Origin: an uncultured bacterium
GTDB taxonomy: Bacteria > Auribacterota > Erginobacteria > Erginobacterales > Erginobacteraceae
Length of the DNA stretch: 32,000 bases
Direction: 5' to 3'
Assembly: GCA_964465735.1 (NCBI GenBank)
Contig: CAYXKT010000010.1
Span: 2,925 to 34,924 of the forward strand
Of the stretch, positions 4,777 through 29,201 are shown piece after piece. The notes below the pieces were generated by a model. It was given only the letters and a program-made list of their open reading frames with translations. It was not told where the DNA came from and did not search any database. The stretch's first letter is position 1. Each line of letters begins with the position of its first letter. The translations under genes were made by a program, and so were the position numbers.

Positions 4777-4839
4777 AATTGAGGATAAGACCAACCGAAT
4801 ATTTTCACAGAACGTATCTGCCAACTAAGGTAAAATAAA

Positions 4840-6462: not shown

Positions 6463-6501
6463 AAAGGATGACAATCGATAATCAGTGTCCGGTAATCGGT
6501 A

Positions 6502-7587
6502 ATGAGCGATGATATGCAGAGGCGGGTGACACGACAGGTGATGGTCGGTCCGGTCCCGGTCGGGGGCGGGACGGAGATCTCCGTCCAGTCGATGACCAAG
6601 ACCGATACCCGGGATGTCGAGGCGACTGTAAAGCAGATCGAGGAATTGGCGGCGGCCGGCTGCGAGATTATCCGGACGGCGGTTCCTGACCCCGCGGCGG
6701 CGGTGGCCCTGAAAGAGATCTGTCGCCGTTCCCCGTTGCCCTTGATCGCCGATATCCACTTTGATCATCGCCTGGCCCTGCTCGCGGCTGAGGCCGGGGC
6801 GGCCGGCTTGCGGATCAATCCGGGAAATATCGGGGCCGCCGGGAAGGTGAAGGAGGTGGTCAGTGCCTGCCGGGAGAAAAATCTCCCGATCCGGGTCGGG
6901 GCCAACGAGGGGTCGCTGAGCCGGGAGATGGAAGAGAAGTACGGCGGACCCACCCCCCGGGCCCTGGTCGAGTCCGCGCTTCGGGAAGTGGCGATCATTG
7001 AGCGGGAGGGATACGGAGAGATCAAGATCTCGGTCAAGGCCTTTGATGTCTTCACCTCCCGGGAGGCTTACCGGCTGCTCTCCTCGAAGACCGATTACCC
7101 GCTTCACGTTGGGATCACCGAGGCCGGGCCTCCGCTTCCCGGGACTGTCCGTTCGGCGATCGGGATCTCAATGCTCCTTTTAGAGGGGATCGGGGATACA
7201 CTTCGGGTCTCTCTCTCCGGCCCACCCGCCGCTGAGGTCCGGGTGGCCCGGGAGATACTTCAGACCCTGGGCTGCCGCGGCTTTGGACCGGTGATCGTCA
7301 GCTGTCCGACCTGCGGCCGGACCCGGATCGATCTTCTGGCTTTGCTTGAGGAGGTGGAGGAGAAACTGGACCGACTCCCGGACAAGGAACGTCTGGCCGG
7401 CTGCCGGGTGGCGGTGATGGGGTGCGAGGTCAACGGGCCCGGGGAAGCTAAACAGGCCGAGATCGGGATCGCCGGGGGGCGGCAGGACGCCCTGCTCTTC
7501 AAGCGGGGGAAGGTGATCGGGCGTTATCCTCTAAAGGAGGTGGTCGATGTCCTGATCTCCGAGCTGGGTACCGGGGGCGAGCGATGA
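6502..7587 (+). CDS. ispG: 4-hydroxy-3-methylbut-2-en-1-yl diphosphate synthase
   Basis: VPVGGGTEISVQSMTKTDTRD N-terminus, PLIADIHFDHRLAL, Fe-S cysteines in SCPTCGRTRIDL and MGCEVNGPGEAKQAEIGIAGG. Confidence 0.97.
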   Translation: MSDDMQRRVTRQVMVGPVPVGGGTEISVQSMTKTDTRDVEATVKQIEELAAAGCEIIRTAVPDPAAAVALKEICRRSPLPLIADIHFDHRLALLAAEAGAAGLRINPGNIGAAGKVKEVVSACREKNLPIRVGANEGSLSREMEEKYGGPTPRALVESALREVAIIEREGYGEIKISVKAFDVFTSREAYRLLSSKTDYPLHVGITEAGPPLPGTVRSAIGISMLLLEGIGDTLRVSLSGPPAAEVRVAREILQTLGCRGFGPVIVSCPTCGRTRIDLLALLEEVEEKLDRLPDKERLAGCRVAVMGCEVNGPGEAKQAEIGIAGGRQDALLFKRGKVIGRYPLKEVVDVLISELGTGGER

Positions 7588-14281: not shown

Positions 14282-15427
14282 ATGAACGGCAGACGAAAAA
14301 TTACGATCCTCCACCTGATTGACAGCCTTCCCCGGGAGGGGGCGGAGATGGTGGTCTATGACCTGATCCAGCAGGGAAACCGGGAGGAGTTTAATTTCCT
14401 GGTCGTTGCCCTGACTCGGGGCGGCGGGGTGGCGGAGATGCTAAAAGCGATCGATATCCCGGTCGATATCCTGAAGAGAAGATCGTTTCTTGACCTCCGG
14501 GCTTTTCGCCGGTTGCTGCGCTTGATCAGAAATCGGAGGGTGGACGTGATCCAGACTCATCTCTTTTCCAGTCATCTCTGGGGGTGGGCGGCGGCGCTTT
14601 TCTTCCCCCGGGTCCGGCTGCTGCGGGTCGAGCACAATATGTCGGAATGGAAGAATTATCTCCGCCGGGGTCTGGATTATCTGCTTTCTTTTCGGACCGA
14701 CCGGTTTGTCGCGGTCTCCAAACCGGTCCGCGGATCCCTGGTCTCGCGCTGCCGTATCGACCCGGTTAGGGTTGAGGTGATTGTGAACGGATTGAATACC
14801 GACCGACTCCGGCCAGGTTCTGACCCGGCCGCCTGGCGGCGGAAACTGGAGATTCCGGCGGAGTCAAAGATTGTGGTCACCGCCGCCGCGCTTACTTCGA
14901 AGAAAGGTCACCGGTATCTTCTGTCGGCATCCGAACTGGTCTCTGCCCATCGGGATGATGTCTATTTTCTCTTACTTGGGGAGGGGGAACTGCGGGGCGA
15001 ACTGGAAAGTTCAATCCGGGAGCGGGGGCTAACCGATCGGGTATTTCTCCTCGGCTCCCGTTCGGACGCGGTGGAGATTATCTCCCAATCCGATCTCTTT
15101 GTTCTCAGCTCGATCCGGGAGGGTCTGCCGATTTCCCTGCTGGAGGCGATGGCTCTGAACCGACCGGTGGTGGTAACCGCGGTGGGAGGATGTCCGGATC
15201 TGATTGTGGAAGGTGAAAACGGCCTCCTGGTTCAGCCCCGGGACGGGGCAGGTCTGGCGGCGGCGATCGTAAAGGTTCTCGACTCTCCGGGGCTGGGAGA
15301 ACGGCTGGGAAAAGCGGCCGCCCAAACCGTGGTTACAGGATACGGGATGCGGGGAATGATCGAAGCTTACGAACAACTCTACCGGTTGAACCGGGAGCAG
15401 CTGAGAAGACGAGTGGGGAACCAATGA
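14282..15427 (+). CDS. Glycosyltransferase family 4
   Basis: ITILHLIDSLPREGAEMVVYDLI, VIVNGLNTDRLRPG, SDLFVLSSIREGLPISLLEAMALNRPVVVTAVGGCPDLIVEGENGLLV. ATG at 14282 preferred over the upstream TTG at 14234. Confidence 0.92.
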   Translation: MNGRRKITILHLIDSLPREGAEMVVYDLIQQGNREEFNFLVVALTRGGGVAEMLKAIDIPVDILKRRSFLDLRAFRRLLRLIRNRRVDVIQTHLFSSHLWGWAAALFFPRVRLLRVEHNMSEWKNYLRRGLDYLLSFRTDRFVAVSKPVRGSLVSRCRIDPVRVEVIVNGLNTDRLRPGSDPAAWRRKLEIPAESKIVVTAAALTSKKGHRYLLSASELVSAHRDDVYFLLLGEGELRGELESSIRERGLTDRVFLLGSRSDAVEIISQSDLFVLSSIREGLPISLLEAMALNRPVVVTAVGGCPDLIVEGENGLLVQPRDGAGLAAAIVKVLDSPGLGERLGKAAAQTVVTGYGMRGMIEAYEQLYRLNREQLRRRVGNQ

Positions 15428-15726
15428 GCGATCTCAAGCCGATCCCGGAAAAACGGAAGATCCGGGTCAGAACCCGGGTGGACGAGAGACGGACCGAGAA
15501 GATTAGCGGTCGGCTGTCCCGGGTAAAGGTCGTGGCCGTATTATTTGCGGCGGCGGTCGTGGGGATTGCCCTGGGAATTGTCCTGGGCCGGGGGGCTAAC
15601 CGGATGGTCAGTGTTCATCGCCAGCAGAAGCGGATTGCTCAGTCCCTGCCGAAGTTCAACCCCGATTCTTCGGACCTGGCGGAACTGGCTCCGGTGGCGG
15701 AACCCGGCAAGTCGCCCGCGCGTTGA
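15424..15726 (+). CDS. Small single-pass membrane protein of unknown function
   Basis: 100 aa, basic N-terminus then VVAVLFAAAVVGIALGIVLG hydrophobic segment. ATGA overlap with the upstream glycosyltransferase suggests translational coupling. Confidence 0.6.
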   Translation: MSDLKPIPEKRKIRVRTRVDERRTEKISGRLSRVKVVAVLFAAAVVGIALGIVLGRGANRMVSVHRQQKRIAQSLPKFNPDSSDLAELAPVAEPGKSPAR

Positions 15727-16463
15727 ATGATCTCAATCTCCACCCGGCGGTTCATCGCTCTCCCCTCGGGCGTGGCGTTGCTTGCTGCCGGCTGGTAGGG
15801 GCCATAACCGATCGCGCTGAGAATCCCCGGCCCGATCCCCTGTTCGTCGATCAGATACCGCATTACTGAACTTGCCCGGGCGCAGCTCAACTCCCAGTTG
15901 GAAGGATAACGGAGGGTATTGATCGGAAGGTTGTCGGTATGCCCACTGATCCGGACTTCAACGGTCGGGTTGTGGAGAAAGACCCGGGCCAGAAGGTTGA
16001 GAAACTCTTTCCCTTCCGGTCTCAGATCGGCCGAGGCGGGGCGGAAGAGAAAAGGGGCGAGGGGGACGATCTTCAGCTTCCACTTGCTGACGTCAACCCG
16101 GACGAAGCGGCTTAAATTGGCGTCGATGATATACTGCTGGATCTCCCGGGCCATCTGCCGCATCTCGTCAATCCGGGCCAGCTCCCGCATCTGCTGCTCT
16201 TTTAATTCCCGGATTTTATCCAGCAGTTCCTGCTCCTCCTGGGTCAGCTCAACATCGATCGCGTCTTCTATTCTTCGGTCGGAGAGCTGGATCAAACGTT
16301 CCCCGGCGATCCAGACCACCGGGATGTTCAGGGCCAGCATCGTGGAGAGGATGATGAAGAAAGTCATCATCAAGGTGGCCAGATCGGAGTAGGTGGTCAT
16401 CCACTCCGGCGGCCAGCCGGCGCCCCCCTCGTCCGGATTGAAATTTTGCCTTCTTCGGGCCAT
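15639..16463 (-). CDS. MotB-family protein B (OmpA-like peptidoglycan-binding domain)
   Basis: Single N-terminal TM with proton-path Asp context GWPPEWMTTYSDLATLMMTFFIILSTM. OmpA-like VEVRISGHTDNLPINTLRYPSNWELSCARASSVMRYLI...NRRVEIEII. Confidence 0.9.
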   Translation of the reverse strand: MARRRQNFNPDEGGAGWPPEWMTTYSDLATLMMTFFIILSTMLALNIPVVWIAGERLIQLSDRRIEDAIDVELTQEEQELLDKIRELKEQQMRELARIDEMRQMAREIQQYIIDANLSRFVRVDVSKWKLKIVPLAPFLFRPASADLRPEGKEFLNLLARVFLHNPTVEVRISGHTDNLPINTLRYPSNWELSCARASSVMRYLIDEQGIGPGILSAIGYGPYQPAASNATPEGRAMNRRVEIEIIQRAGDLPGSATGASSARSEESGLNFGRD

Positions 16464-16482
16464 TATCAGGGTTCGGTCGGAT

Positions 16483-17298
16483 TTATCTCTCGGCCATCTC
16501 GGAGCCGAGATAGATATGGAACTCGACCCGGCGGTTGCGCCCCGTCAGTTCGGGGTCGTCTTCTTCATACTTGGGTCGGGAAGGGCCGTAAGCCGCGGCG
16601 GAGATCCTTTCCGGGGGGATCTCCCCCCGGTCAATGAGGTAATTGGCCGCGGCAATCGCTCGGGCGGCGGAGAGTTCCCAGTTGCTGGGGAACTGTTGCT
16701 GATGTCGGGGGTGGATCGGGGTGGAGTCGGTATGCCCCTCGATCCGGACCGAGGCTCCGGTCTCTTCAATCAGCCAGGCGATCTTGTCCAGAACCGGATA
16801 GAAAGACTGGAGAATTTCTGCCTTACCCTCCCGGAAAACCAGAGGCGCGGTAGGGATGATCACGATATCCTCCGCCGTTACCAAGAGCTCGACGTCGCCC
16901 TCCATCCTTCCCATCCGAACAAACTCCATCACCTCTTCCGCTTTCATCCGCAGGGTCCCCAGTTCGCTGAGGACGGTCTGCTGCTGTTTGCGGGGGAGCA
17001 GCTGGAATTGGGTCAGGATCCGGTACTCATCCTCGGTGACAAAATCCATCTGGCTGGTCTCGGCGGTTCCCCGGATGATATCGGCATCGTCCTCCTCCCG
17101 CATTTTGATGTATTTCTCGTCAATCCCGGCTACGGTCAGCGAATACCAGAGGACAAAGAAGGTCATCAGGATGGTTGTCATATCGGAGTAGGTGACCATC
17201 CAGTCCGGTGGCCAGTCCCCTTCGATCCCGCCGGCCCCGGACTCGGGGGCGATCCGTTCGTGCTCAATCTGGGGGGTGAGTTCAGTCTCGTCGGGCAT
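16483..17298 (-). CDS. MotB-family protein A (OmpA-like peptidoglycan-binding domain)
   Basis: DWPPDWMVTYSDMTTILMTFFVLWYSL TM; VRIEGHTDSTPIHPRHQQQFPSNWELSAARAIAAANYLI...GRNRRVEFHIYL. Start ATG at 17298 with a good Shine-Dalgarno, rather than the ORF-track start at 17388. Confidence 0.92.
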   Translation of the reverse strand: MPDETELTPQIEHERIAPESGAGGIEGDWPPDWMVTYSDMTTILMTFFVLWYSLTVAGIDEKYIKMREEDDADIIRGTAETSQMDFVTEDEYRILTQFQLLPRKQQQTVLSELGTLRMKAEEVMEFVRMGRMEGDVELLVTAEDIVIIPTAPLVFREGKAEILQSFYPVLDKIAWLIEETGASVRIEGHTDSTPIHPRHQQQFPSNWELSAARAIAAANYLIDRGEIPPERISAAAYGPSRPKYEEDDPELTGRNRRVEFHIYLGSEMAER

Positions 17299-17344
17299 AG
17301 TATGTCTCCTCCCGGGAAGAGCTTCCCGGGCCCGTCCATCGGTC

Positions 17345-18097
17345 CTACTGCCGGCCGGCCAGGTAGGCGCGGAGTTTTTCCCGGACAATCTGGGAATTGT
17401 CGCCGGCCTGGATCGAGGCGATTCCCTCGATGATGATCTCGCGGGAGAGGGCCATATTGGTATTGTAGACCCGAATCTTCCCCGCTACCGGCATACAGAT
17501 CAACCCGGCGAAGAGGATCCCGTAAAAGGTGGTCATCAACGCGACCGACATATTCGGGGCGATGGTCGAAGGGTCGGTCAGAGTCCGCAGGAGCATAATC
17601 AACCCGATCAGGGTCCCGACCATCCCGTAAAGAGGAGCGTAAACCCCGACATCCCGCCAGAGTCGTTCGTCGGCGCCGATCTTCATCTGCAGATAGTCGG
17701 AGACGGTCTCCATAATTCCCCGGGTGATCCCGGGGTCAGTCCCGTCGGCCACCAGGTCAACCCCGATATCAAGCAGGGGGTAGCGGCCCTTGGTTGAGAG
17801 TTCCCGGATCGACATAAATCCTTCCTTCCGGGCCTTGACGGCCATCTCCACGATCAGGTTGATCACCGCTTCCGGGTCCATCACCGCCCCGACCAGAGTG
17901 AAGCGGAAGGCCTTTAAGCCGCTGATGATCTGGTAGAAGCTGAAGTTAATCATAATCGCGGCCGCCGTTCCCCCAAAGACGATGATCACCGACGGGAGGT
18001 TGAAAAAGTAGGGGAGCATCTCCGGTCCCCGGACGTAGATGGAGAGGAAGACGACGCTTACTCCGAGAATAAAACCGATTATGGTGCTGAGGCGCAT
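17345..18097 (-). CDS. motA: MotA-family stator protein (MotA/TolQ/ExbB superfamily, flagellar MotA-like)
   Basis: MRLSTIIGFILGVSVVFLSIYVRG N-terminus, VIIVFGGTAAAIMINF, YAPLYGMVGTLIGLIMLLRTLTDPSTIAPNMSVALMTTFYGILFAGLICMPVAGKI. Confidence 0.95.
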   Translation of the reverse strand: MRLSTIIGFILGVSVVFLSIYVRGPEMLPYFFNLPSVIIVFGGTAAAIMINFSFYQIISGLKAFRFTLVGAVMDPEAVINLIVEMAVKARKEGFMSIRELSTKGRYPLLDIGVDLVADGTDPGITRGIMETVSDYLQMKIGADERLWRDVGVYAPLYGMVGTLIGLIMLLRTLTDPSTIAPNMSVALMTTFYGILFAGLICMPVAGKIRVYNTNMALSREIIIEGIASIQAGDNSQIVREKLRAYLAGRQ

Positions 18098-18103
18098 AGT
18101 TCT

Positions 18104-18310
18104 TTAACCTGTAGTTGGTTCAGGTTTAGGGGAGTTGATCTCCTGCTTGTAGCGGGTGACCTTGGTGATAATATCGTCAACCAGATCCCGGACAATATAT
18201 TGCTCCCCGGAGTTTAAGGTGATGATGGTGTCCGGCTTGGCTTCCAGCCGTTCGATCATCTCAGCGTTGATGATCAATTCCTGTCCGTTAAGCCTGGTCA
18301 GCTTGATCAT
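18104..18310 (-). CDS. flbD: FlbD-family small protein
   Basis: 68 aa: MIKLTRLNGQELIINAEMIERLEAKPDTIITLNSGEQYIVRDLVDDIITKVTRYK, the FlbD family pattern. Immediately upstream of motA; overlaps the previous stop as TAATG. Confidence 0.88.
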   Translation of the reverse strand: MIKLTRLNGQELIINAEMIERLEAKPDTIITLNSGEQYIVRDLVDDIITKVTRYKQEINSPKPEPTTG

Positions 18311-20412
18311 TATTTCTTGGCGTTCTCCCCCGCCTCGTCCTGGAAGTGGGGGACGGTAACCAGTCCGTCGTGGGAAAGCTTGCGGATAACGGCGATAATT
18401 TCGTGTTGGGCGGACAGGGTCTTACTGGACAGCTTGCGCAGCACATCCATAATCTCTTCCTGGGCCTCGACCGCCCGGGAGTGGGGGATACCCCCCATCA
18501 CCGTCAGGTCTTCTTTGAGCATCGCCCCCGCCCGTTCGGTCAGGCCGGTAAAGAACTTGGTCTGGACTTCTTCCGACGAACCCCGCAACGCCATCTTTAA
18601 AGTGGTCCGTTCCACGGTCCGAAAAATTTCGTCGATAATCGATTGATCGACGGCCAGCATTGCTTCATTGAAGGGGAGTTCCTTCCCCTCTTCCTCAATC
18701 TGGACCTTTTTGACCGATTCCATATCTTCTTTCAGGCGGGAGCGGCCCTTGTCGGTCATATTTTTCATAAACTTCGAGCGGACATCTTCGGGGGCGTCAA
18801 CCAAAGCGGCACCCAGGACTTCGATATTCAAGTTGTGGATCAAGGTCTCCACATCCTTGTCCTGAAGAGTCTTGATGTCTTCGAAGAGGAACATCCGTTT
18901 TCTGACGTCGGTAGCCATCGCCGGATTATTGCTATCCATCTTCTCCAGCAGGACCTTGGCCATCGCGTAGCGGCTGGAGGAGAGCATATCCGCCAGGACC
19001 CGGACCCCGGTCACCGGCTGATAATCTTTCCTCAAGCGGACAATCTTCAGTTTTCTCTCGAGGAAGTCCTTGATCTCGTCGGCCATATCCTCTTCCTCGG
19101 TCAACTGAGTCATTGCTCGAGCCATCTCGAACTGCTTCTCCTCGTCGAGAGCCTCAAAGACCGAGGCCGACGTCTGGGCGTCGAGCTGGGAGAGGACCGC
19201 CGCCGCTAATTTCGGCTCCTCGTCCTTGATCAGAAGGATGATATCCTCCGGATCAGTGGTCTTGATGTATTTAAATGGCTGCTCAACCAGGCTGGGGGAT
19301 CGTTCCAACTGCTGGCTCATCAGTTCCTCGAGGTTGCCCAGGACCTGGATCACCTGCCCTCCACCCCCCCCGAAACCTCCGTCTCCGGAGGGCGCGGCGG
19401 CCGCGGCCGCCGCCGGCGGTGCTCCGGGAGCGGCCGCCGGAGCACCGGGTACACCCGGCGCGCCGCCGCCGCCCAATCCGCGTCTCCGCTGTTCATCGAG
19501 CAGATCGGAAAGGGTGTCTCTCATTTCGGTCAGCAGGACGTCGGATTCCTGGGCGGGGCTGCTTAAAAGATCCCGGATCTCTTCGAGGATCCCGACATCG
19601 ATCCTCCCTCCGCCGGACCCGCTCCCGACCTGCATTTCCATCAGTTCCTTGATCCCGGTCAGGGTGGCCTCCCGGGTATCGCTGGAGATCCCGGAGAGGG
19701 CCTTCTTCAGTTCTTCCAACTCCGCCTGCCGCTGCTTTCGCTCTTCTTCTGAGAGATGCATCCCGCCGGCGGCCGCGACACCGCTCTCGGGGCTGCCGGC
19801 CTTGACCTTCCGCATCGGAAAGTAGATGGCGGCGATCAGGATTAAAAGGGCAACCAGCGCGAGAATGGAGTAGAGCAGGTAGTTCTGCTGGGCGGCGGAG
19901 GGAGGAGAGAAATCTCCCCACTTCTTGGGGATGACCCGGACCGTATCCCCCCGGGCGGGATTGATCCGGGCCCAGCGGGTGATGGCTTCCTGGATCTGCC
20001 CCGGTTCATCCGGGGTCCCCAGATCCGAAGCCGAGAGTTTTTCATCAGCTTCGACCGTGATGTGGATGCTGGAGATTTGGGCGAACATCCCCCGACTGGC
20101 CGGCAGGGCCTGCTCTCTTTGTTCGGTCGTCGGGATCCGGACCCCCGGCAGTCGCTCCAGGACCCGGGCTGTGTCAGGATCCTGGAGGTCGAAACGATCG
20201 GAGAGGGTGACTTCCACACTGACAATACTCCGGTGGGGGCCAAGCATTGTGTTAAGATTATTCTGTAGAGAGGCTTCCAGGGCGGAGGCGATCTGGGTGG
20301 CGTCGCCCCGCTGGATGGTCTGGGCCCCGGTGGCCGGGATCAAAAGGAAAAAGCATAGGACCGGGAGAAAAATGTTCCCGGAGTTTCGGCTGAAGAAAGT
20401 TATCCTTGCCAT
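18310..20412 (-). CDS. Single-chain FliF(C-terminal, RBM3-like)-TM-linker-FliG fusion protein, 700 aa
   Basis: Signal peptide MARITFFSRNSGNIFLPVLCFFLLIPATGAQ. FliF C-terminal-like ALEASLQNNLNTMLGPHRSIVSVEVTLSDRF...ITVEADEKLSASDL...INPARGDTVRVIPKKW, then TM NYLLYSILALVALLILIAAIYFP. Gly/Ala/Pro linker, then FliG-like EEPKLAAAVLSQLDAQTSASVFEAL...GVRVLADMLSS...VRKRMFLFEDI...ALRGSSEEVQTKFFTGLTERAGAMLKEDL...SRAVEAQEEIMDVLRKL. Confidence 0.88.
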   Translation of the reverse strand: MARITFFSRNSGNIFLPVLCFFLLIPATGAQTIQRGDATQIASALEASLQNNLNTMLGPHRSIVSVEVTLSDRFDLQDPDTARVLERLPGVRIPTTEQREQALPASRGMFAQISSIHITVEADEKLSASDLGTPDEPGQIQEAITRWARINPARGDTVRVIPKKWGDFSPPSAAQQNYLLYSILALVALLILIAAIYFPMRKVKAGSPESGVAAAGGMHLSEEERKQRQAELEELKKALSGISSDTREATLTGIKELMEMQVGSGSGGGRIDVGILEEIRDLLSSPAQESDVLLTEMRDTLSDLLDEQRRRGLGGGGAPGVPGAPAAAPGAPPAAAAAAAPSGDGGFGGGGGQVIQVLGNLEELMSQQLERSPSLVEQPFKYIKTTDPEDIILLIKDEEPKLAAAVLSQLDAQTSASVFEALDEEKQFEMARAMTQLTEEEDMADEIKDFLERKLKIVRLRKDYQPVTGVRVLADMLSSSRYAMAKVLLEKMDSNNPAMATDVRKRMFLFEDIKTLQDKDVETLIHNLNIEVLGAALVDAPEDVRSKFMKNMTDKGRSRLKEDMESVKKVQIEEEGKELPFNEAMLAVDQSIIDEIFRTVERTTLKMALRGSSEEVQTKFFTGLTERAGAMLKEDLTVMGGIPHSRAVEAQEEIMDVLRKLSSKTLSAQHEIIAVIRKLSHDGLVTVPHFQDEAGENAKK

Positions 20413-21246
20413 TTATTCTGCCTCGTACTCAGGGGTGGCTTCCGGTTCCTCGACTTCTCCCCCGGTAAACTCATCTTCACTGACCGGAGAAGTATTCTCC
20501 GCCAGTTCCGGGTAACGGGGGACGAGGAGGACCATCCCCGGATAGATCAAGTCGGGGAGGAAGATCTGGTCCCGGTTGGCGTGATAGAGCAGAAGCCAGC
20601 GATAAGGGTCGTTATAGATCTCCTCACGGCCGGCGATCTTCCAGAGATTGTCATCTCTTCTGACCATATAAGTATATGTCGCGGCCCGCTCCACCGCCAT
20701 CCCCGACGGGGCCGGTCCAGGGGCAACCGCTCCATCCCCGATCCAGGCGGTGGCGGGTGGAGGCGCCATCTCTAATTCCTCGATCTGGAATTCCAGGGCC
20801 TCGATCTTCAGCGCCCGGTCATCGGCGATTTTTCGCAGGGAGGCCGCCTCTTCAGTCAGTCGGTCCCTTTCCCGGCGGAGGTGTTCGTTGGCGGCCACTT
20901 CATTGAGGAGTTCCTCCCGGATCTCCCGGCAGTCCTCTGAGGCAATTAAAAACTCCTCCCGGTCGATCTTCCGAGCCGGTCGGCGGCGGGTGAATTCATC
21001 GGACCGCGGGTTGATGAAGATATAACCCCGGTTTCCCCAATCCCGGACCGTCTCTCCCCCGTAGATTCCCGGTTGGGGACTGTAGGGATAATCGATTACC
21101 CCGGTGGTCCGACCCGATTTCTTCCAGACACTCTCCAATCCCGTGCGGTCGATATTTATCGACGACTGTCCGTGCAGCTGGGGGGGGGATAAAAATCCGG
21201 AGAAAAGGAAGATGGAAATTATGATTTCGAAGGATGTCTTGAGCAT
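20413..21246 (-). CDS. Secreted coiled-coil protein with C-terminal LysM domain
   Basis: Signal peptide MLKTSFEIIISIFLFSGFLSPPQLHG. Coiled coil REIREELLNEVAANEHLRRERDRLTEEAASLRKIADDRALKIEALEFQIEELE. LysM YTYMVRRDDNLWKIAGREEIYNDPYRWLLLYHANRDQIFLPDLIYPGMVLLVP. Confidence 0.8.
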   Translation of the reverse strand: MLKTSFEIIISIFLFSGFLSPPQLHGQSSINIDRTGLESVWKKSGRTTGVIDYPYSPQPGIYGGETVRDWGNRGYIFINPRSDEFTRRRPARKIDREEFLIASEDCREIREELLNEVAANEHLRRERDRLTEEAASLRKIADDRALKIEALEFQIEELEMAPPPATAWIGDGAVAPGPAPSGMAVERAATYTYMVRRDDNLWKIAGREEIYNDPYRWLLLYHANRDQIFLPDLIYPGMVLLVPRYPELAENTSPVSEDEFTGGEVEEPEATPEYEAE

Positions 21247-21342
21247 TGCCTGAAGCCTCCCCGATACTCCAATAATTTAAGTAGTGGAGGGGGGCAGGAT
21301 ATCGCTCCCTGTTCCGCTACCTGATGCCATCTCTAATTGTGT

Positions 21343-21371
21343 AATCTACATAAATCGGAATGTATTGTAAA
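21343..21371 (-). promoter_or_regulatory. Candidate sigma70-type promoter for the minus-strand motor operon
   Basis: On the minus strand: TTTACA - 17 nt - TAGATT, about 97 nt upstream of the LysM protein start. Confidence 0.4.
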
Positions 21372-21404
21372 GAGAACTTTTTTGCTGTTCAGCCGGGGAG
21401 CGAT

Positions 21405-21433
21405 TTGACAATCAAGAGAAAATTTGGTATTGT
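21405..21433 (+). promoter_or_regulatory. Candidate sigma70-type promoter for the 21518 CDS
   Basis: TTGACA (21405-21410) - 17 nt - TATTGT (21428-21433), within the divergent intergenic region. Confidence 0.55.
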
Positions 21434-21517
21434 CGGCTTGTCTGATATTCCGGCTCAGAAGATCAAAACCGGCCTCCCCTTTCTTCACCAAAATAGCATA
21501 ACACTACTGGACCGAAG

Positions 21518-22552
21518 ATGGAAAGAAAAAGTTTCGTCCGGATTTCCCTTCATCTGCTCTGGGGGATCTTGATCATAGTAGTTCTCCTCCTGTTTTTTCG
21601 GGAACGGTTGGGCCACCTGCCCGGTTTTTTCCGGCGACTGAAAAGGGAGCCCCAGGCCCTGGTCTCGGTCTTCAAGCCTCGGGAGATGGCCGGGGTCAGT
21701 TTCTCCTTCGCTGATCCGGAGGACCGGGCCGTCTGGAAGACCTCGGGATCCCGGCTGGAGGCCGTCCCCGCTTTCTTCGGGGCGGATGAAACCTGGGGTC
21801 GGGTTACCTATCAGCCTTCCGGTTCCCCGGGTTTGCTTTTGACCGATGAGACAATGGGGGTGATGGACTGGCGGGGGGCGGAGAGTCTCTCCTTCTCCGT
21901 CTATAACCCCCAGACCTGGTCGATCAACCTCAAGATCAAGGTCAAGGATACCTCCGGCCACAGTTTCCAGAGTGAACAGGAGATCCCTCCTCGGGTCCGG
22001 ACTGTGGTCACCATCCCGGTCCGGGATATCGCTTCCCGGCTTGATCTGAGCCGGGTCGGCTACCTGAATATCTTCCTCTGGGATCCGACTACCGCCACAG
22101 ATCTGTATCTGATTGACTTCGCCTTCCCCGCCCCTGGCCGGCCCTCTGTCCCTTCCGGCCTGGTCAAATTTATGGGGCTACAGTTTCCCTCCGTGCTTCG
22201 GCCGGGAGAGGAGGTTGAAGCAGTCTTTTATTTTCTCCCCAGTCGTCCGCTTGCCGCCGACAGTGTTCTTCTGATCCGGCTCCGCCGGGGCGAGGAGCTC
22301 TTCTCCCTGGTCCGGGTTGATCCGCCCACCCCGACCAGCCGCTGGCGACCCGGACGGTTGGCCAAGGTCGGGCCGTTCCCGGTGGAGATCCCCGCCGATC
22401 TCCATCCCGGCCGCTACGATCTGGAGGCGATCCTGGCCCAGCCGCTTTCCAGCGCCCGGGGCGAGGAGCTGGTCTTTCAGCCCTACCAGAACCCGGAAAT
22501 TCTTGGTTTCAAGGTCTCGGAAATAAATGTGACCGGTGAGGGAGGGATGTGA
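21518..22552 (+). CDS. Membrane-anchored extracytoplasmic protein of unknown function; predicted all-beta N-terminal domain plus C-terminal 'YxNPEI' domain
   Basis: N-terminal TM ISLHLLWGILIIVVLLLFF. FSFADPEDRAVWK...LSFSVYNPQTWSINLKIKVKD segment, then a domain ending YQNPEILGFKVSEINV that recurs in the 22802 CDS. Confidence 0.7.
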   Translation: MERKSFVRISLHLLWGILIIVVLLLFFRERLGHLPGFFRRLKREPQALVSVFKPREMAGVSFSFADPEDRAVWKTSGSRLEAVPAFFGADETWGRVTYQPSGSPGLLLTDETMGVMDWRGAESLSFSVYNPQTWSINLKIKVKDTSGHSFQSEQEIPPRVRTVVTIPVRDIASRLDLSRVGYLNIFLWDPTTATDLYLIDFAFPAPGRPSVPSGLVKFMGLQFPSVLRPGEEVEAVFYFLPSRPLAADSVLLIRLRRGEELFSLVRVDPPTPTSRWRPGRLAKVGPFPVEIPADLHPGRYDLEAILAQPLSSARGEELVFQPYQNPEILGFKVSEINVTGEGGM

Positions 22553-22801: not shown

Positions 22802-24289
22802 ATGAAAAAAACCGTCTCTTCTGCCGCCCTTTTTGCCGCGTTTCTTTCTCTCTTCTCCCTCCCCGCGCTTTTTGGGCAGGGATATGGCTCTTATCGGACC
22901 GAGGTCCGGGAAGGTGATCCGAGACTGCAACTGGTCAGTTTCAGTCTCCCGACCGAGATCCCCCAGGGAGAACTGATCAGCGGCAGCCTCTTCTTCAAGG
23001 CGACCCGGCCCCTGGAAGAGAACCTGAAAGTATTTTTTCATCTGGTCCGCCCCGGCCAAACCAAGACCGTCCTCAACGGCGACTTCTCTCCTCCCAACTC
23101 CACCCGGCTCTGGGATGTCAACCAGGTGGTGGAGGCGGGTCCTTTCGAACTGTCGGTCCCCTTTAACCTGGAGCCGGGCGAATACGATATCCGGGCCGGA
23201 CTGCTCCAGATTGTTCGGGAGGAGGATCTGGTCCGCTATATCCGGGAGCCATACCTCAACCCGGAGATTGAAAATTTTATTATCGGCCGGCTGACGGTCC
23301 AGGGGACGGAGAGGGCCGATCTCTCGGGTCCCTCTGAGCTTGATCTGATCGCCTTCGACAACGAGGAGGAGATCATCTTCTGGGAGGCCTCGGGGGCGAA
23401 GATGGAGTTTGCCGGCTACTCCGAGGAAGGGGAAGAGACGGTCTCCGCCGTCCGGGCTACCATCCTCCCCGGGATTGTTGAGTACCCGGGGGTGAGTCTG
23501 CAGAATTTTTTTAATCTCTTGCCCGCTCGGTCCGACTGGTCACTTTACGATACTCTCCGTCTCCACCTCTCTCTTCCGCCGGGAGACTCGGCCGGTCAGC
23601 TGCGGCTTTTGATTGAAGACCGGGCCGGGCGGCGTTATGAGTCCAACATAACCGTCTCCCCGGGCCGGACCAAGCGGCTCAATCTCTCCACGGTCGATCT
23701 CAGCGGTTCGATCAATGTCTCCGCGATCCGCCGAATGAAGCTTTACCGGGTCAACCCGACCTCAGCTTTCACCTTCTACATCTCCCACCTCCAGCTGATC
23801 TCCCGGGGCCAGCCGACCGGGAAACCGGCGTTGACTTTTGTTCGGATGGAGGCGCCCGATCAGGTCCGGCGGGGCCGCCCCTTCCAGATCCGGTTCTTCT
23901 TCAGCATCGACCAGCCGATCTTCCAGAGTCATAAGCTCTTTACTCACATCTACCGGGTCAACGATATGGCCGGGAAGGCCACCTCGGATATCTCTCTTCC
24001 CCAGCCGATCCGGAACTGGCGGCTGGGCGAGGAGATAGCGGTTGATTCCGGCCCCCTGATGATCTCCACTGATGGCCCCCCCGGAACCTATGTGGTTCGG
24101 GCCGGGCTTTATGTCGTCGCCGACAGCTCCGGCCGGGGCTATGTCAAGGTCGATGACTGGTTGGCCTATGACAGCAGCCAGGAGGTGATCAACATTATCC
24201 AGCCGGATGGACCGGTCGATTACATCAAGCAGCCCTATACCAACTCCGATATCCAGAACTGGGAGGTGGGGACGATCACGGTCGAATGA
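22802..24289 (+). CDS. Secreted protein of unknown function with two 'YxNPEI' domains flanking a beta-rich domain
   Basis: Signal peptide MKKTVSSAALFAAFLSLFSLPALFG. Domain ends YLNPEIENFIIGRLTVQ and YTNSDIQNWEVGTITVE match the end of the 21518 product. Confidence 0.75.
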   Translation: MKKTVSSAALFAAFLSLFSLPALFGQGYGSYRTEVREGDPRLQLVSFSLPTEIPQGELISGSLFFKATRPLEENLKVFFHLVRPGQTKTVLNGDFSPPNSTRLWDVNQVVEAGPFELSVPFNLEPGEYDIRAGLLQIVREEDLVRYIREPYLNPEIENFIIGRLTVQGTERADLSGPSELDLIAFDNEEEIIFWEASGAKMEFAGYSEEGEETVSAVRATILPGIVEYPGVSLQNFFNLLPARSDWSLYDTLRLHLSLPPGDSAGQLRLLIEDRAGRRYESNITVSPGRTKRLNLSTVDLSGSINVSAIRRMKLYRVNPTSAFTFYISHLQLISRGQPTGKPALTFVRMEAPDQVRRGRPFQIRFFFSIDQPIFQSHKLFTHIYRVNDMAGKATSDISLPQPIRNWRLGEEIAVDSGPLMISTDGPPGTYVVRAGLYVVADSSGRGYVKVDDWLAYDSSQEVINIIQPDGPVDYIKQPYTNSDIQNWEVGTITVE

Positions 24290-25143
24290 GCCGCCGGGGG
24301 CGAAAGGTCCTGTGGCTTGGGGTCATAATCGGCGGCTCGGTGACTGTTGTCGGTTGGTTTCTTCTCTTTGTCGCCCTGGTTCTGGAGCCGAACTGGGTCA
24401 CCGTGGACCGGGTGGTGATCGAGGACGAGCGGCTCTCCGGCCCCCTGGCCGGGATGAAGATCGTCCAGATCTCCGATCTTCACCTGGAAGGCAGCCTGGG
24501 GTTCCGGGAAAAGGAATTGGTCCGGAAACTCAATCGACTTTCTCCTGATATTATCCTGATCACCGGCGATCTGGTAGAAGCCGCGGCGCCGGAGTTGGTG
24601 GAGCAGCTGGTGAAAGAGTTCCGTCCCCGGATCTGGACTTATGCCATCCTCGGCAACTCCGACCGGATTTATCTCCAGCGGGAGGGACTGGCGCGGCGGT
24701 GGAAGAAGTCCGGTCTTTCTCTGGTCGGGGGCAAATGCCTTCCGATGGCTGGAGAGAGAGCGGAGATATTCTGGCTGGCCGGGATTGATTTTCCCGGCTA
24801 CGAGGTTCCCGGGGTGGAGGCGGAGATTGATCGCATCCTGAGCGAATTTCCCGCCGGCTCTCCCCTGGTCTTTCTCTCTTACGACCCCGATCTGGCCCCG
24901 CTCCTGATCGAGAAAGGCGCCGACCTGGTGCTTTCCGGGGATACTCACGGGGGTTTGATCGGTCTTCCCGGCTGGCCGGCGATCTTTCACCGGTATTTCG
25001 GCCGGTCGAAATATATCCGGGGACTTTATCCGGTAGCTGGTGGGATTCTTTATGTTAACCGGGGGATCGCCCCCAAGGGGCTTCCGGTCCGTTTTCTCTG
25101 TCCGCCGGAGATAACCCTCTTCGAGTTTCGGCCGGTCGGATGA
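24286..25143 (+). CDS. Membrane-anchored calcineurin-like metallophosphoesterase (YkuE/YaeI-like)
   Basis: MKIVQISDLHLEG, DIILITGDLVEAA, YAILGNSD, LVLSGDTHGGLIGLP metal-binding motifs after an N-terminal TM. Confidence 0.9.
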   Translation: MSRRGRKVLWLGVIIGGSVTVVGWFLLFVALVLEPNWVTVDRVVIEDERLSGPLAGMKIVQISDLHLEGSLGFREKELVRKLNRLSPDIILITGDLVEAAAPELVEQLVKEFRPRIWTYAILGNSDRIYLQREGLARRWKKSGLSLVGGKCLPMAGERAEIFWLAGIDFPGYEVPGVEAEIDRILSEFPAGSPLVFLSYDPDLAPLLIEKGADLVLSGDTHGGLIGLPGWPAIFHRYFGRSKYIRGLYPVAGGILYVNRGIAPKGLPVRFLCPPEITLFEFRPVG

Positions 25144-25427: not shown

Positions 25428-26213
25428 ATGGTCAAGGAACCCAGGATTTTAATTCTGATGTACCACAGCGTCTCCGATTCCGGGGAGTACGGAAGACTGC
25501 CTGCGGACTGTCGCCCGCTTGGCTATCGGGTGGGGGTCCGCGATCTCCAAAATCATCTGGAAATTCTTCACCAAGAGGGTTGCTCTACCATCCTTCTTCA
25601 GGATCTGGCCGAGGCCCGGGCAGGGAGGGCTAAACTTCCTCCCCGTCCGGTTATCTTGACTTTTGACGATGGCTACGGGGATAATTTCTCCTCTGCCCTC
25701 CCTCTGCTCCGTTCCGCCGGCTGCCGGGCAGCCTTCTTTCTCAGCGTCTCTTACCTCGGCCGTCCGGGGATGTTGACCTGGGAGGAGGCCTCGCGCCTGG
25801 CCGCCGCCGGGATGGAGATTGGCTCTCACGGAATGAACCACGGACTTCTCTCTGGGAAAAGCCGGGCGGAACTTCGCCGGGAACTGGAAGAGTCCCGCCG
25901 GTGCCTGAAGGAAAGGCTGGGGTTGGCGGCGGAGTATTTCTCTCTCCCCCGGGGTTACCTGCCCCGGGCGCTCCCCCGGCTGGCTCTCCGGGCTGGTTAC
26001 CGCGGCCTCTGTACTTCTCGGCCGGGTTTGAATACACTCCGGACCGATCCCTTCCGGCTTTGCCGTTTCCCGGTCCGGTCCGGGATTTCTCCCGAAGAGT
26101 TTCGGGCGCTCATATCCGGACGGGGCTGGAGGTATTCCCGGATTTATCTGTCCGAGACGGCTCGGGATCTGGCCCGGATCCGTCACTACCGGCCGGGGAG
26201 AGAGGGGCGATGA
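25428..26213 (+). CDS. Polysaccharide deacetylase (NodB/CE4) family protein
   Basis: ILILMYHSVSD, VILTFDDGYGDNFSSALPLL, EIGSHGMNHGLLSGKS, YFSLPRGYLPRAL. Confidence 0.92.
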   Translation: MVKEPRILILMYHSVSDSGEYGRLPADCRPLGYRVGVRDLQNHLEILHQEGCSTILLQDLAEARAGRAKLPPRPVILTFDDGYGDNFSSALPLLRSAGCRAAFFLSVSYLGRPGMLTWEEASRLAAAGMEIGSHGMNHGLLSGKSRAELRRELEESRRCLKERLGLAAEYFSLPRGYLPRALPRLALRAGYRGLCTSRPGLNTLRTDPFRLCRFPVRSGISPEEFRALISGRGWRYSRIYLSETARDLARIRHYRPGREGR

Positions 26214-27073
26214 CGACAGCTGCCACGGATTGTGAAGTCCAGGGGGGCGAGAGGAGATCTGTATTCGAACTGGTCTTGATGACGGCCGCGGTCCTCTTTC
26301 TGTTTTTCCCCACCCTGGTCTGGATGAACGCTCGATTTTTCGAGGAGCACTCCTATTACGGACACGGCTGGCTGATCCCGCCGGCGATCGCCTTTCTCAT
26401 CTACCATCGTCGGGAATTCATCCTCTCCGTCCCGTCTCGCCCCAGCAGAGTCGGACTTTTCTGCCTGATTCTTTCTCTGGCTCTGCATCTGGGAGCCCGT
26501 TTATTCGGGGTCAATTTTCTCTCCGCGCTTGCCCTGCCGATGGTGTGTTTCAGTCTGGTCCTGGCCCGGTTCGGACCTGGCCGCAGTCGGTACCTGATCG
26601 GTCCCTTACTTCTAAGCGTGTTGATGATCCCTATTCCGGGGATCTGGATTATCGCTTTGACCTTCCGGTTGAAGATGGTCGCGGTTGATGCCGGGGTCGC
26701 CCTGGGGAGGTTGCTCGGATTGGAGATTGTTCGGGAGGGGATCGAGATCATCCTCCCCACCGCCCCCCCGGGGGAGACTCTGAAGATCGGCGATCCCTGC
26801 AGCGGTCTGCGATCGCTGTTCTCCTTTGGCGCCTTAGGCGGTTTTTTCGCCCTGCTCCTCCCGATTACTGCTCCCCGAAGGGCCATCGTCTTTTTTGCCG
26901 CGGTTCTTTTAGCCCCCTTGAGCAATCTCCTCCGGGTGGTGGCGTTGATCGTTCTGCGACAGACGGCGGGACCGGAAATCCTTGCCGGTCACTGGCATAT
27001 CGCTCTTGGGGTGGGGGTCTTCTTCTTCTGTTTCTTAATCTTTCTCCAGGTGGCGCGATGGCTGCTCCGTTAA
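26210..27073 (+). CDS. Exosortase (EpsH-related archaeosortase/exosortase family)
   Basis: Multi-pass protein with catalytic Cys in GDPCSGLRSLFSF, Arg in LSNLLRVVALI and His in AGHWHIALGV. ATG at 26210 overlaps the previous stop as ATGA. Confidence 0.92.
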   Translation: MTTAATDCEVQGGERRSVFELVLMTAAVLFLFFPTLVWMNARFFEEHSYYGHGWLIPPAIAFLIYHRREFILSVPSRPSRVGLFCLILSLALHLGARLFGVNFLSALALPMVCFSLVLARFGPGRSRYLIGPLLLSVLMIPIPGIWIIALTFRLKMVAVDAGVALGRLLGLEIVREGIEIILPTAPPGETLKIGDPCSGLRSLFSFGALGGFFALLLPITAPRRAIVFFAAVLLAPLSNLLRVVALIVLRQTAGPEILAGHWHIALGVGVFFFCFLIFLQVARWLLR

Positions 27074-27800: not shown

Positions 27801-29201
27801 TCAGACTGCCCCTTTCCCGCTCAGGATCACCCCCAGGGTCTTGAGCACGATCAGAAGGTCGAGGGCCAGGGACATATTCTCCAGGTAGAAGATGTCATAG
27901 AGAAGCTTCTCCCGATGCTCGATGGTCGAGGAGGAATAACCGTAAGTCACCTGAGCCCAGCCGCTGATCCCCGGCTTGACCTCCAGCCGCTCGGCATAAA
28001 ACGGGATCTTCTCCACCAGTTCGCGGACAAAGCAGGGTCGCTCCGGCCGGGGTCCGATCAGGCTCATCTCGTTGATCAGGACGTTGTAGAGCTGGGGTAA
28101 TTCATCGAGCCGGAATCTCCTTAAGAACCTCCCTGTCCTGGTGCAGCGGGGATCGTGAGGACAGGAGAATTCCGGTCCGTGAGTCTCACTGTCAGCGAAC
28201 ATCGTCCGGAATTTATAGAGGATAAAGGGCTGACCGTGAAGTCCCGCCCGCTCCTGTCGGTAGAGAACCGGGCCGGACGAGGTCAGTTTAATCACCAGGG
28301 CGATCAGGAAGAGGAGGGGGGAGAAGACAATCAGGCCGATCAGAGAGATCGCGGTATCGATCAGTCTCTTCAGGTCCTTGTAGCGGATTACCCGATTGGA
28401 GATCGGGCTGATCATCGGGACCAGTTCGGTCGGGGAACCGGCCATCGATCCGATGGTCGCCTCGTAGAGACTGGGGACGATCCGGAAGACGACATCGGTC
28501 TGGCTGAAGAGGGTGAAGATGGAGAGGATGGTCTCTTTCGGCATCTGGCTGGCGATCACCACCTCGTCAATTGGATAGAATTCAATCAACCGGGGAATAT
28601 CGTCAATCCCCCCCAGGTGGAATGGATTCTCCGGCAAAAGGTCGGTGTCTTCCCTCAAGCTGATGAAGCCGACCAGTCGGCGGGAGATATGGGCCTCCCG
28701 GAGCAGACGGGTGGCAATTCTCTGGGCCCCGTGATCGGTGCCCACAATCAGAGTGTGGGAGACGAAATAGTCTTTCCCCAAAACCAGGTTGATCAGTTTT
28801 CGGGCCAGCAACCGCCAGGTGATGATCAGGATTATGGTGAGCAACCAGGAGAAAAAGATCACTGTCCGGGGATAGGCGAAAGCCCGGAAGAAGAAGGCCG
28901 CCACCATAATGATCAGGGTGCTGGCGGTAGTGGCCTTGATAATGTTGAGGACGGTATCGTAGGTGGTCTTGTACTTTGGCTTGTCGTAGAGGCCGTAAAT
29001 AAAAAAGCTGAGCAGCCTCAAGACAATAATCGGCAGGAGAATCTTTAAGAAATCGGCGAAGTTGGCTCGGGGGAAAGGGCCTTCAGTCCGCCCGAAGCGG
29101 AAAAGGAATCCGGAGATTTCGGCGCCCAGAACCAGCAGAGAGTCAATGGTCAGTGAGGCGAGGATCAGGGTGAGCTTGGAAGTCCGACGCTTCCTATTCA
29201 T
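27801..29201 (-). CDS. Exopolysaccharide biosynthesis polyprenyl glycosylphosphotransferase (WbaP/WcaJ-type initiating sugar transferase)
   Basis: CoA-binding-like HTLIVGTDHGAQRIATRLL. Bacterial sugar transferase domain KRLIDTAISLIGLIVFSPLLFLIALVIKLTSSGPVLYRQERAGLHGQPFILYKFRTM...LDELPQLYNVLINEMSLIGPRPERP. Confidence 0.95.
   Translation of the reverse strand: MNRKRRTSKLTLILASLTIDSLLVLGAEISGFLFRFGRTEGPFPRANFADFLKILLPIIVLRLLSFFIYGLYDKPKYKTTYDTVLNIIKATTASTLIIMVAAFFFRAFAYPRTVIFFSWLLTIILIITWRLLARKLINLVLGKDYFVSHTLIVGTDHGAQRIATRLLREAHISRRLVGFISLREDTDLLPENPFHLGGIDDIPRLIEFYPIDEVVIASQMPKETILSIFTLFSQTDVVFRIVPSLYEATIGSMAGSPTELVPMISPISNRVIRYKDLKRLIDTAISLIGLIVFSPLLFLIALVIKLTSSGPVLYRQERAGLHGQPFILYKFRTMFADSETHGPEFSCPHDPRCTRTGRFLRRFRLDELPQLYNVLINEMSLIGPRPERPCFVRELVEKIPFYAERLEVKPGISGWAQVTYGYSSSTIEHREKLLYDIFYLENMSLALDLLIVLKTLGVILSGKGAV

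Follow-up and report, generated by a model that had tools for sequence, protein, structure and literature searches.

Can the rotor and stator of the bacterial flagellum serve in a machine that has no flagellum to turn? A survey published in 2025 found rotor proteins in the genomes of non-motile bacteria and asked if they might serve another function there (PMC12199754). The question is posed in concrete form by a 32-kb stretch of DNA, hereafter the window, from an uncultured bacterium of the Erginobacteraceae (Auribacterota; contig CAYXKT010000010.1). On its minus strand, between positions 15639 and 21246, lies a run of six genes for a LysM protein, a rotor-like fusion of FliF and FliG domains, FlbD, MotA and two MotB proteins (MotB1 and MotB2), set amongst genes for the synthesis of a surface polysaccharide. 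Here we report the domain identities, conservation and genomic context of this cassette, and we propose that it probably encodes a non-flagellar rotor–stator machine derived from the flagellar motor core and tied to the surface-polysaccharide (exopolysaccharide, EPS) pathway. The cassette gives the question raised by the survey a testable system, and as a minimal natural rotor made of one polypeptide, with no C-ring switch, it should be useful for the study of torque generation. It also bears on the modularity and evolution of the flagellar motor, and suggests that ion-driven mechanical work has a part in the making or use of surface polysaccharides by some bacteria of the Planctomycetes–Verrucomicrobia–Chlamydiae (PVC) group.

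A flagellar motor core with no other flagellar genes nearby

A preliminary description of this DNA, made from the letters alone, had proposed the six-gene run, and all six open reading frames (ORFs) were found intact and tightly packed where it placed them. The stop of the LysM gene (20413) abuts the start of the fusion gene (20412), the FlbD ORF and the end of the fusion gene share 1 base, and the other gaps measure 6–46 bp. The mechanical ORF of MotB1 (16483–17388) begins with a TTG at 17388 and encodes 301 amino acids (aa); the true start is probably the ATG at 17298, 30 codons later, because the homologues and the gene call on an identical contig begin there. The rotor-like and stator identities assigned earlier are borne out by Pfam and NCBIfam profiles, by an AlphaFold (AF2) model and by hhalign. 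The fusion that had been read as FliF/FliG is likewise real, but its FliF part consists of the RBM3 domain only, and FliG_N is missing.

Among the annotated ORFs of the window (all gene-like ORFs of at least 150 aa), no rod, hook, filament, export-gate (FlhAB, FliPQR) or FliM/FliN gene was found, in agreement with the preliminary description. The same picture emerges from about ten homologous loci with flanks of up to ±10 kb, where no other flagellar gene occurs among the Pfam-annotated or called genes. As to a flagellar gene set elsewhere in a carrier's genome, the cassette is present (locus L012) in 3300035698_653, the type metagenome-assembled genome (MAG) of Ca. Erginobacter occultus, which is 95% complete, encodes type IV pili and was published without flagella (PMC9324843). 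No Auribacterota MAG from Ace Lake is reported to encode flagella, whereas Ca. Auribacter fodinae does (PMC9324843).

The fusion protein

The fusion protein comprises an N-terminal signal or transmembrane (TM) segment, a FliF-RBM3-like periplasmic domain, a TM helix, a cytoplasmic linker of about 170 aa that is partly of low complexity, FliG_M and FliG_C. The FliG half is recognised directly, with Pfam matches to FliG_C in two stretches (7.6e-35) and to FliG_M (3.5e-11), and an alignment to Thermotoga maritima FliG (1LKV) in which FliG_M, the MFxF hinge (MFLFEDI) and FliG_C are all present. The match to the NCBIfam fliG profile (TIGR00207) is restricted to positions 106–304 of 338 and reaches 149 bits against a cutoff of 226.7, hence the conclusion that FliG_N is missing. 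The FliM-binding motif EHPQ reads EEPK in the fusion, with E398, E399, P400 and K401 conserved within the family, which fits the absence of FliM; a FliG of N, M and C domains with an EHPQR FliM-binding motif is not what the fusion contains.

The torque-helix segment is present as a tandem duplicate (residues ~523–577 and ~596–662) followed by the C-terminal helices, and the two copies are 38% similar over 29 aa (E = 1e-5). In both, the R281-equivalent is still basic and the D288/D289-equivalents are still an acidic pair: K/R, E562 and D563 in the first copy, and R610, R627, E634 and D635 in the second, of which R627, E634 and D635 are invariant in all lineages. More distant members of the family (P0034, P0036–P0038) have a single torque-helix copy.

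The FliF half was less accessible. The N-terminal half of the window protein has no Pfam FliF match, no PF01514 (YscJ_FliF) match was obtained for the fusion and a full RBM1/RBM2/RBM3 FliF is not present, and comparisons of the N-terminal domain with PDB sequences, by its single sequence or by a profile, gave no match. Since these direct searches were empty, its identification needed structure prediction and a profile–profile step. An AF2 model of the N-terminus, built from 13 family members, has an alpha-beta-beta-alpha-beta topology (alpha 36–57, beta 62–70, beta 113–123, alpha 139–147, beta 157–163) followed by the TM helix 173–204, with a pLDDT of 75–86 in the core and 67 on average. In a Foldseek search of the PDB the top 18 matches are all FliF RBM3/S-ring structures (probability 0.99–1.0, E = 6e-5 to 4e-3), and the next are SctJ proteins of type III secretion systems. 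Weak matches to PF08345 (YscJ_FliF_C) occur in 6/13 family members, and a sister family found in the exhaustive search (P0028, P0153, P0161) exceeds the Pfam cutoff for PF08345; hhalign joins the N-termini of the window family and the sister family with a probability of 98.2% (E = 3e-14). Three independent lines of modelling and sequence comparison support the reading of this half as a FliF RBM3 (S-ring) domain. It has an invariant RGDT motif (R154–T157) and a short, low-confidence insertion where FliF carries its beta-collar. The TM helix is almost invariant in the Auribacterota family, with invariant columns Y178–K202, and the conserved helices of the linker were considered as a possible degenerate FliF-tail/FliG_N unit.

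Stator proteins and FlbD

MotA is of the flagellar type, scoring 180.8 bits with the NCBIfam PomA profile and 178.9 bits with MotP as against 16.4 bits with TolQ; because every score stays short of its NCBIfam equivalog cutoff, the protein does not rank as an orthologue of a named subfamily. Its best PDB matches are flagellar MotA/PomA proteins (3e-42 to 7e-37), and it retains the Arg equivalent to R90 and both channel prolines (E. coli numbering). At the equivalent of E. coli E98, where flagellar references have Glu, every module MotA carries Arg/Lys followed by Asp/Glu (MotA residues ~88–97). The rotor-interface Glu is thus absent from the module MotAs, and the Arg/Lys in its place is a clade signature, which implies a remodelled rotor–stator interface. 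The R281-equivalent of FliG stays Arg while the E98-equivalent of MotA is changed, and rotor and stator must pair their charges otherwise than the textbook motor does. In the homologue search the module MotAs are at least 45% identical to the window MotA, and flagellar MotAs of Tissierellia and other Firmicutes ~38–42%.

MotB1 and MotB2 each match the OmpA and MotB_plug families of Pfam, and in all lineages both keep the OmpA-like domain and a TM motif WPPxW...[YF][SA]D that includes the channel Asp. The first and second MotB genes form orthologous groups (B1 and B2) across lineages, from which it follows that the duplication is old; judging from the sequences, a B1–B2 heterodimer is plausible.

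The small FlbD protein matches PF06289 over residues 1–58 (the profile has 59 positions) with 86.1 bits against a cutoff of 24.7 (1.2e-24), and its gene follows the fusion gene directly in every locus except the variant L009/L010. FlbD, also known as SwrD, forms hexameric rings; an interaction with MotA has been predicted and not validated, and the protein is poorly understood (PMC13232269).

Conservation, selection and origin

A word-based search returned 27 close homologues of the fusion (50–78% identity), which, where the source names them, belong to Ca. Erginobacter occultus, Auribacterota or the PVC group. An exhaustive profile search added distant proteins of the same architecture with 180–479 bits, as against at most 150 bits for ordinary FliGs. 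In a distribution scan with one genome per species, full-length matches were obtained in 8 Auribacterota/PVC MAGs, 1 labelled Omnitrophota and 3 labelled Planctomycetia/Planctomycetales, and the other 68 loci proved to be ordinary FliGs. The preliminary description had suggested checking the gene order in relatives, and the order is the same in the 8 species representatives from Auribacterota/PVC and in MAGs that bear the labels Omnitrophota and Planctomycetia. Both conditions that the preliminary description had named as refuting, a canonical flagellar gene set elsewhere in the genome and absence of the cluster from relatives, have turned out in favour of its reading, the former as judged from the published Ca. 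Erginobacter occultus MAG. With all loci scored by profiles made for this analysis, the sequence LysM-like, fusion, FlbD, MotA, MotB1, MotB2 occurs in every sufficiently long locus except L009/L010, and it persists down to ~31–36% identity (tblastn best segment).

All eight genes compared with three relatives have dN/dS values of 0.07–0.43, with MotA lowest (0.07–0.10) and 88–92% identical between species. The cassette genes are under purifying selection, and these values rule out decay. Two loci contain broken genes: the fusion gene of L022 (9980–11967) and the U345 gene (see below) of L006 (8079–9134; the same as L019) are each split into two ORFs, by frameshifts, assembly errors or local pseudogenisation.

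The order of the cassette recalls that of flagellar operons. In the canonical fliG loci (L024–L091) flbD lies 6–10 kb downstream on the same strand in 37/68 and motA, usually with motB, is also downstream in 31/68, both being found in 29/68; the fliG–flbD–motA arrangement is widespread in Thermoleophilia/Solirubrobacterales (Actinomycetota) and Firmicutes and occurs in one spirochaete and in other groups. The cassette is collinear with such an operon, and would have arisen when fliF was fused to fliG and the export, rod and hook genes in between were lost. This flagellar-operon origin, which we infer, is argued from gene collinearity and not from phylogeny.

The LysM partner and two glycan-binding-like neighbours

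The LysM protein consists of a signal peptide, a conserved N-terminal region, a coiled coil and a C-terminal LysM domain (residues ~190–245). As a single sequence it stays below the Pfam LysM cutoff (17.3 vs 20.9 bits) and matches the NCBIfam LysM model PRK11198 at 3.8e-8, and the earlier assignment to LysM is confirmed by the family profile, which matches the solved LysM domains of Kbp/YgaU, LytE and 6VE2_O with E = 2e-8 to 9e-8. The C-terminal domain is 63–70% identical in L008, L009 and L011 and recognisable in L001 and L007, and wherever a locus has upstream sequence, a LysM-like gene immediately precedes that of the fusion.

The run had also been called self-contained, which does not fully hold: the motor module is larger than 15639–21246, as two conserved genes outside these bounds, here named U345 and U495, travel with the motor genes. 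Neither protein has a Pfam match even at a loose threshold. They are paralogous (reciprocal matches of their hidden Markov models, 1e-32 to 1e-66), and GH123-like neighbours have a domain in common with them. In a Foldseek comparison the AF2 model of U495 (pLDDT 79.6) resembles xanthanase modules (3e-9), CBM11 (TM-score 0.63) and the portion of GH50 agarases that is non-catalytic and of CBM type; on this model the protein is CBM-like and hence probably glycan-binding. U345 and the motor co-occur in the Auribacterota loci, L008, L011, L020 and L023. Their arrangement varies: in Auribacterota and L011 U345/U495 are found upstream in divergent orientation, in L020 and L023 they are downstream, and in L008 they share a same-strand run with MotB1, MotB2, a GH123-like hydrolase and a GT2. 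The upstream slots of L007 and L022 hold a 456–459-aa protein (CBM60 confirmed in L022), with a Wzy-like protein also in L022.

The surface-polysaccharide context

The preliminary description had both ends of the run abut surface-glycan genes, and this is so; between them the two sides carry a flippase, glycosyltransferases, deacetylases, an exosortase and a priming transferase. The plus-strand EPS locus that surrounds the operon comprises the flippase, three GT4 glycosyltransferases, a GFO-type oxidoreductase, a hexapeptide acyltransferase, two polysaccharide deacetylases, a metallophosphoesterase, the exosortase EpsH, EpsI, the priming sugar transferase and a GT2. The exosortase EpsH and EpsI are identified by PF09721 (6.5e-48) and PF11984 (1.2e-28) alongside the glycosyltransferases.

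All homologous loci are likewise embedded in EPS genes (Wzx, Wzy_C, Wza/Wzz, Bac_transf, GT2/GT4, deacetylases, exosortase, GH123, CBM60). The exosortase type of context is limited to the Auribacterota loci, and other lineages have Wza/Wzz/Wzy instead. Thus L007 contains Wza/Wzz/BY-kinase/Wzy/Wzx, L008 GH123 and GT2, L011 GH123, and L023 GT4, GT9 and GH123. In L020 the cassette is accompanied by a Wzy-like gene, a histidine kinase and a response-regulator GGDEF diguanylate cyclase (the two at 4125–6898); in L022 by a priming transferase, a deacetylase, the CBM60 protein, the Wzy-like protein and a GAF-HD_5 (HD-GYP-type) protein (1488–2678); and in L009 a hybrid kinase and response regulator (2817–5477) adjoin it. 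These signalling neighbours hint at control by cyclic di-GMP or a two-component system.

A model for the machine and its alternatives

In the machine that we envisage, the fusion protein would oligomerise in the inner membrane, RBM3 building a ring on the periplasmic side and FliG_M/FliG_C a ring beneath the membrane, with the covalent FliF–FliG link standing in for the joint between FliF tail and FliG_N in the flagellum. A MotA pentamer and the MotB1–MotB2 pair, probably a heterodimer, would be anchored to the peptidoglycan and pass ions via the MotB Asp, and these stators, helped by FlbD as in flagellar motors, would turn the ring by pushing on the FliG_C torque helices, of which each subunit has two. 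Its periplasmic face may handle a nascent or surface-bound N-acetyl-amino-sugar polymer from the flanking Wzx/Wzy/exosortase locus, and the LysM/coiled-coil protein and U345/U495 may cooperate in having the polymer moved, spooled, exported or organised. This output is the least secure part of the model. As regards the functions put forward in the preliminary description, the genomic setting favours one connected with surface polysaccharide, with gliding and general envelope energisation as unproven possibilities.

A number of observations weigh against this proposal. The ring, its rotation and its output are predictions from genes and models, and no periplasm-spanning axle or outer-membrane component is evident in the cassette. 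The Foldseek TM-scores to FliF are modest (0.35–0.56), partly because the long beta-collar of FliF has shrunk to a short low-confidence loop, and the mean pLDDT of the model is 67. With Arg/Lys at the E98-equivalent, the canonical pair of MotA E98 and FliG R281 cannot form as in E. coli. A LysM protein bound to both peptidoglycan and the ring would hinder rotation. L009 has no adjacent stator, the L009/L010 variant having the first two genes only; L007 has U495 and not U345, and L022 (14.6 kb, ending at MotB2) shows neither. The genome-wide lack of flagellar genes rests on one published MAG analysis, and carriers labelled Planctomycetia or Omnitrophota may also own true flagella. In Auribacterota, synteny shared by descent may explain part of the association with EPS genes.

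The same parts list might instead describe a motor for gliding or surface translocation, in which the ring drives U345/U495 along the surface with EPS as track or slime. The glycan-binding beta-sandwich proteins are conserved partners, the carriers are reported without flagella, and known gliding systems run on ion-driven 5:2 motors (Agl-Glt, GldLM; PMC3858216). However, the cassette lacks a giant adhesin-like surface protein, an outer-membrane platform and a track protein, U495 and U345 are small and bear no cell-surface anchoring signal, and the context is one of EPS biosynthesis and export genes rather than motility or chemotaxis, all of which makes gliding unlikely. A non-rotary energiser or sensor similar to Tol/Ton, where ion flow through MotAB gates EPS synthesis or export, possibly via cyclic di-GMP, would account for the signalling genes next to the cassette in L020, L022 and L009, for the altered interface residue of MotA and for a peptidoglycan- or glycan-binding LysM partner whose gene abuts that of the fusion, which suits a static scaffold. 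We nevertheless consider it improbable: neither the torque-helix charges nor the MFxF hinge vary, and the former are even duplicated, RBM3 is the ring-forming unit of FliF, and the stator is of flagellar type and not of the TolQ/ExbB type.

Many Planctomycetia are flagellated, some flagellates have additional FliG and stator paralogues, the data considered here are those of a 32-kb window, and flagella were published for Ca. Auribacter fodinae; an auxiliary or paralogous rotor–stator set for a canonical flagellum encoded elsewhere in the genome would fit these points. It is nonetheless very unlikely given the near-complete Ca. Erginobacter occultus MAG reported without flagella, a fusion that has no FliG_N and no FliM-binding motif and brings its own membrane anchor and ring domain, and a cassette that always lies in glycan loci and never beside flagellar genes. 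A subset of flagellar genes in seemingly non-flagellated organisms could be the decaying remnant of a lost flagellum, and such remnants have been discussed (PMC12199754), but the cassette has innovations of its own (the fusion, the torque-helix duplication, the paired MotBs and the new partners). We reject this highly improbable reading on the intact ORFs, the dN/dS values and a gene order conserved across three phylum labels. Least credible of all is an anti-phage defence system of the Zorya type with its MotAB-like motor. The weak ZorB matches in both MotBs do not exceed 77 bits and fall mainly on the OmpA-like domain, a generic one, and MotA has no ZorA match, on which grounds Zorya was rejected; genes similar to ZorC/D are absent, and FliG and FlbD are present.

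Relation to known systems

FliG is, as far as we are aware, regarded as exclusive to the flagellum, and we know of no FliG in the non-flagellar 5:2 motors Tol, Ton, Agl, GldLM and Zorya. No published non-flagellar FliG/MotAB system was found in a literature search whose coverage excluded most subscription journals.

RBM3, FliG_M/FliG_C with hinge and torque charges, MotA, MotB and FlbD are homologous to parts of the flagellar motor core, and the gene order matches the fliF–fliG ... flbD–motA–motB of Firmicutes, Actinomycetota and spirochaete operons. Unlike the flagellum, the cassette lacks RBM1/2, FliG_N, FliM/FliN, export apparatus, rod, hook and filament; it has FliF and FliG in one polypeptide, a doubled torque helix, two MotBs and a reversed charge at the E98-equivalent, and it resides in EPS loci of bacteria reported without flagella. 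Closest among published proteins is the naturally occurring fusion in the Chlamydiaceae, non-flagellated bacteria of the PVC superphylum, in which a shortened FliF is joined to a FliG-like cytoplasmic domain (PMC4768692); it resembles the present one in this layout and in its host affiliation. By its published description, however, the chlamydial protein has ~330 aa, with RBM2, another RBM and a FliG_M-like region only, and no MotAB or FlbD partners; it is thought to be injectisome-related, and its function is not known (PMC4768692).

The Agl-Nfs motor of Myxococcus, which is ion-driven and moves the spore-coat carbohydrate polymer around the cell surface (PMC3858216), is a functional precedent for our model, although similar by function only. 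Agl-Nfs and Agl-Glt combine an ion-driven 5:2 motor with envelope proteins and act on a Wzx/Wzy-type polymer or in gliding, but their motor is of the TolQR type, they have no FliG or FliF domain and their accessory proteins are unrelated. The GldLM motor of type IX secretion is also a non-flagellar, ion-driven rotary envelope machine; its components are non-homologous beyond the distant 5:2 motor architecture, and no type IX secretion genes occur here.

Closer relatives are the TPR-bearing sister fusions (P0028, P0153, P0161), which share the order signal peptide, RBM3, TM helix, FliG_M and FliG_C; in L097 the fusion gene also precedes FlbD–MotA–MotB. They differ in that they carry C-terminal TPRs and just one FliG_C, are encoded with only one MotB and with other partners, and lack an EPS context. 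L096 (9198–16324) and L097 (812–8337) encode an AAA_16/22 ATPase, the fusion, a 985-aa protein, FlbD, MotA and a single MotB, and in L004, L005 and L095 a giant ORF (more than 3,200–3,500 aa) and the gene of a TPR/UPF0164 (PorV-like) protein precede the TPR fusion. The neighbourhood of the TPR-family loci is free of EPS and flagellar genes, and we found no published description of this family, which from its gene content looks like a second undescribed mini-rotor cassette. Its association with FlbD–MotA–MotB suggests a wider group of such cassettes. We tentatively put forward, as a possibility still short of an even chance, a distinct class of non-flagellar rotary nanomachines that combine a FliF-RBM3/FliG ring with MotAB and comprise at least two families, the one EPS-linked and the other TPR-bearing. 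If this were true, the cassette in the window would be the first example of the class, the ion-driven rotation of an inner-membrane ring would handle polysaccharide or envelope cargo and not a filament, and the flagellar rotor–stator pair would be able to act as a stand-alone module. Public data hold other FliG fusions too, among them full-length FliF with FliG_M and FliG_C (P0099, 787 aa), FliM–FliG (P0050, P0155) and FliN–FliG (P0102, P0125); some natural FliG fusions may be gene-calling artefacts.

Features of the cassette and the rest of the window

The coordinates of the cassette and its neighbours are collected in Table 1. Promoter and terminator scans gave weak consensus matches only, and neither the Rfam nor the tRNA scan of the window gave a match. 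Housekeeping genes in the window are clpP, clpX, uppS, cdsA, dxr, rseP and ispG.

Table 1 Positions in the window of the motor genes, fusion-protein domains and neighbouring features
Feature	Position	Strand	Length, residues and evidence
LysM/coiled-coil periplasmic protein	20413..21246	-	277 aa; signal peptide, LysM profile match
Rotor-like FliF-RBM3/FliG fusion	18310..20412	-	700 aa; Pfam FliG_M/FliG_C, AF2, hhalign
FliF RBM3-like ring-building domain	19918..20310	-	Residues ~35–165; AF2, Foldseek, hhalign
TM helix of fusion	19801..19896	-	Residues ~173–204; AF2 helix
FliG_M domain	19045..19251	-	Residues 388–456; Pfam 3.5e-11, alignment to T. maritima FliG 1LKV
FliG_C region	18313..18945	-	Residues 490–700; Pfam in two stretches, two alignments to the same T. 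maritima segment
FlbD/SwrD-family small protein	18104..18310	-	68 aa; Pfam FlbD 1.2e-24
MotA, flagellar (PomA/MotP-like) type	17345..18097	-	250 aa; Pfam MotA_ExbB 3.8e-21
MotB1	16483..17298	-	271 aa; plug, TM helix with channel Asp (YSD), OmpA-like peptidoglycan-binding domain
MotB2	15639..16463	-	274 aa; plug, TM helix with channel Asp, OmpA-like domain
Divergent intergenic region, motor operon and U345/U495	21247..21517	.	Promoter-like hexamer pairs on both strands, consensus only, weak
U345, membrane-anchored, two beta-sandwich domains	21518..22552	+	Reciprocal hidden Markov model matches with U495
U495, secreted, three beta-sandwich domains, no catalytic domain	22802..24289	+	AF2 and Foldseek
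Calcineurin-like metallophosphoesterase	24286..25143	+	Recurrent neighbour: Auribacterota loci, L007, L011, L022

Three further ORFs of the window deserve mention. The mechanical ORF of EpsH (25901–27073, plus strand) starts at a GTG, spans 390 aa and overlaps with the deacetylase gene that comes before it; the true start lies later (about 26210), because the gene call on the identical contig is of 287 aa. The minus-strand gene at 29194–30021 encodes a coiled-coil protein of 275 aa that matches no family significantly; this gene always stands before that of the priming sugar transferase (also in L001, L003, L007 and L022), and its product may be an EPS chain-length or scaffold factor. Finally, a plus-strand ORF of 100 aa (15424–15726) with one predicted TM helix lies after a GT4 gene and, in antisense, runs over the 3' end of MotB2; it may be a real gene, because small genes are called at this place in L002 (84 aa) and L003 (94 aa).

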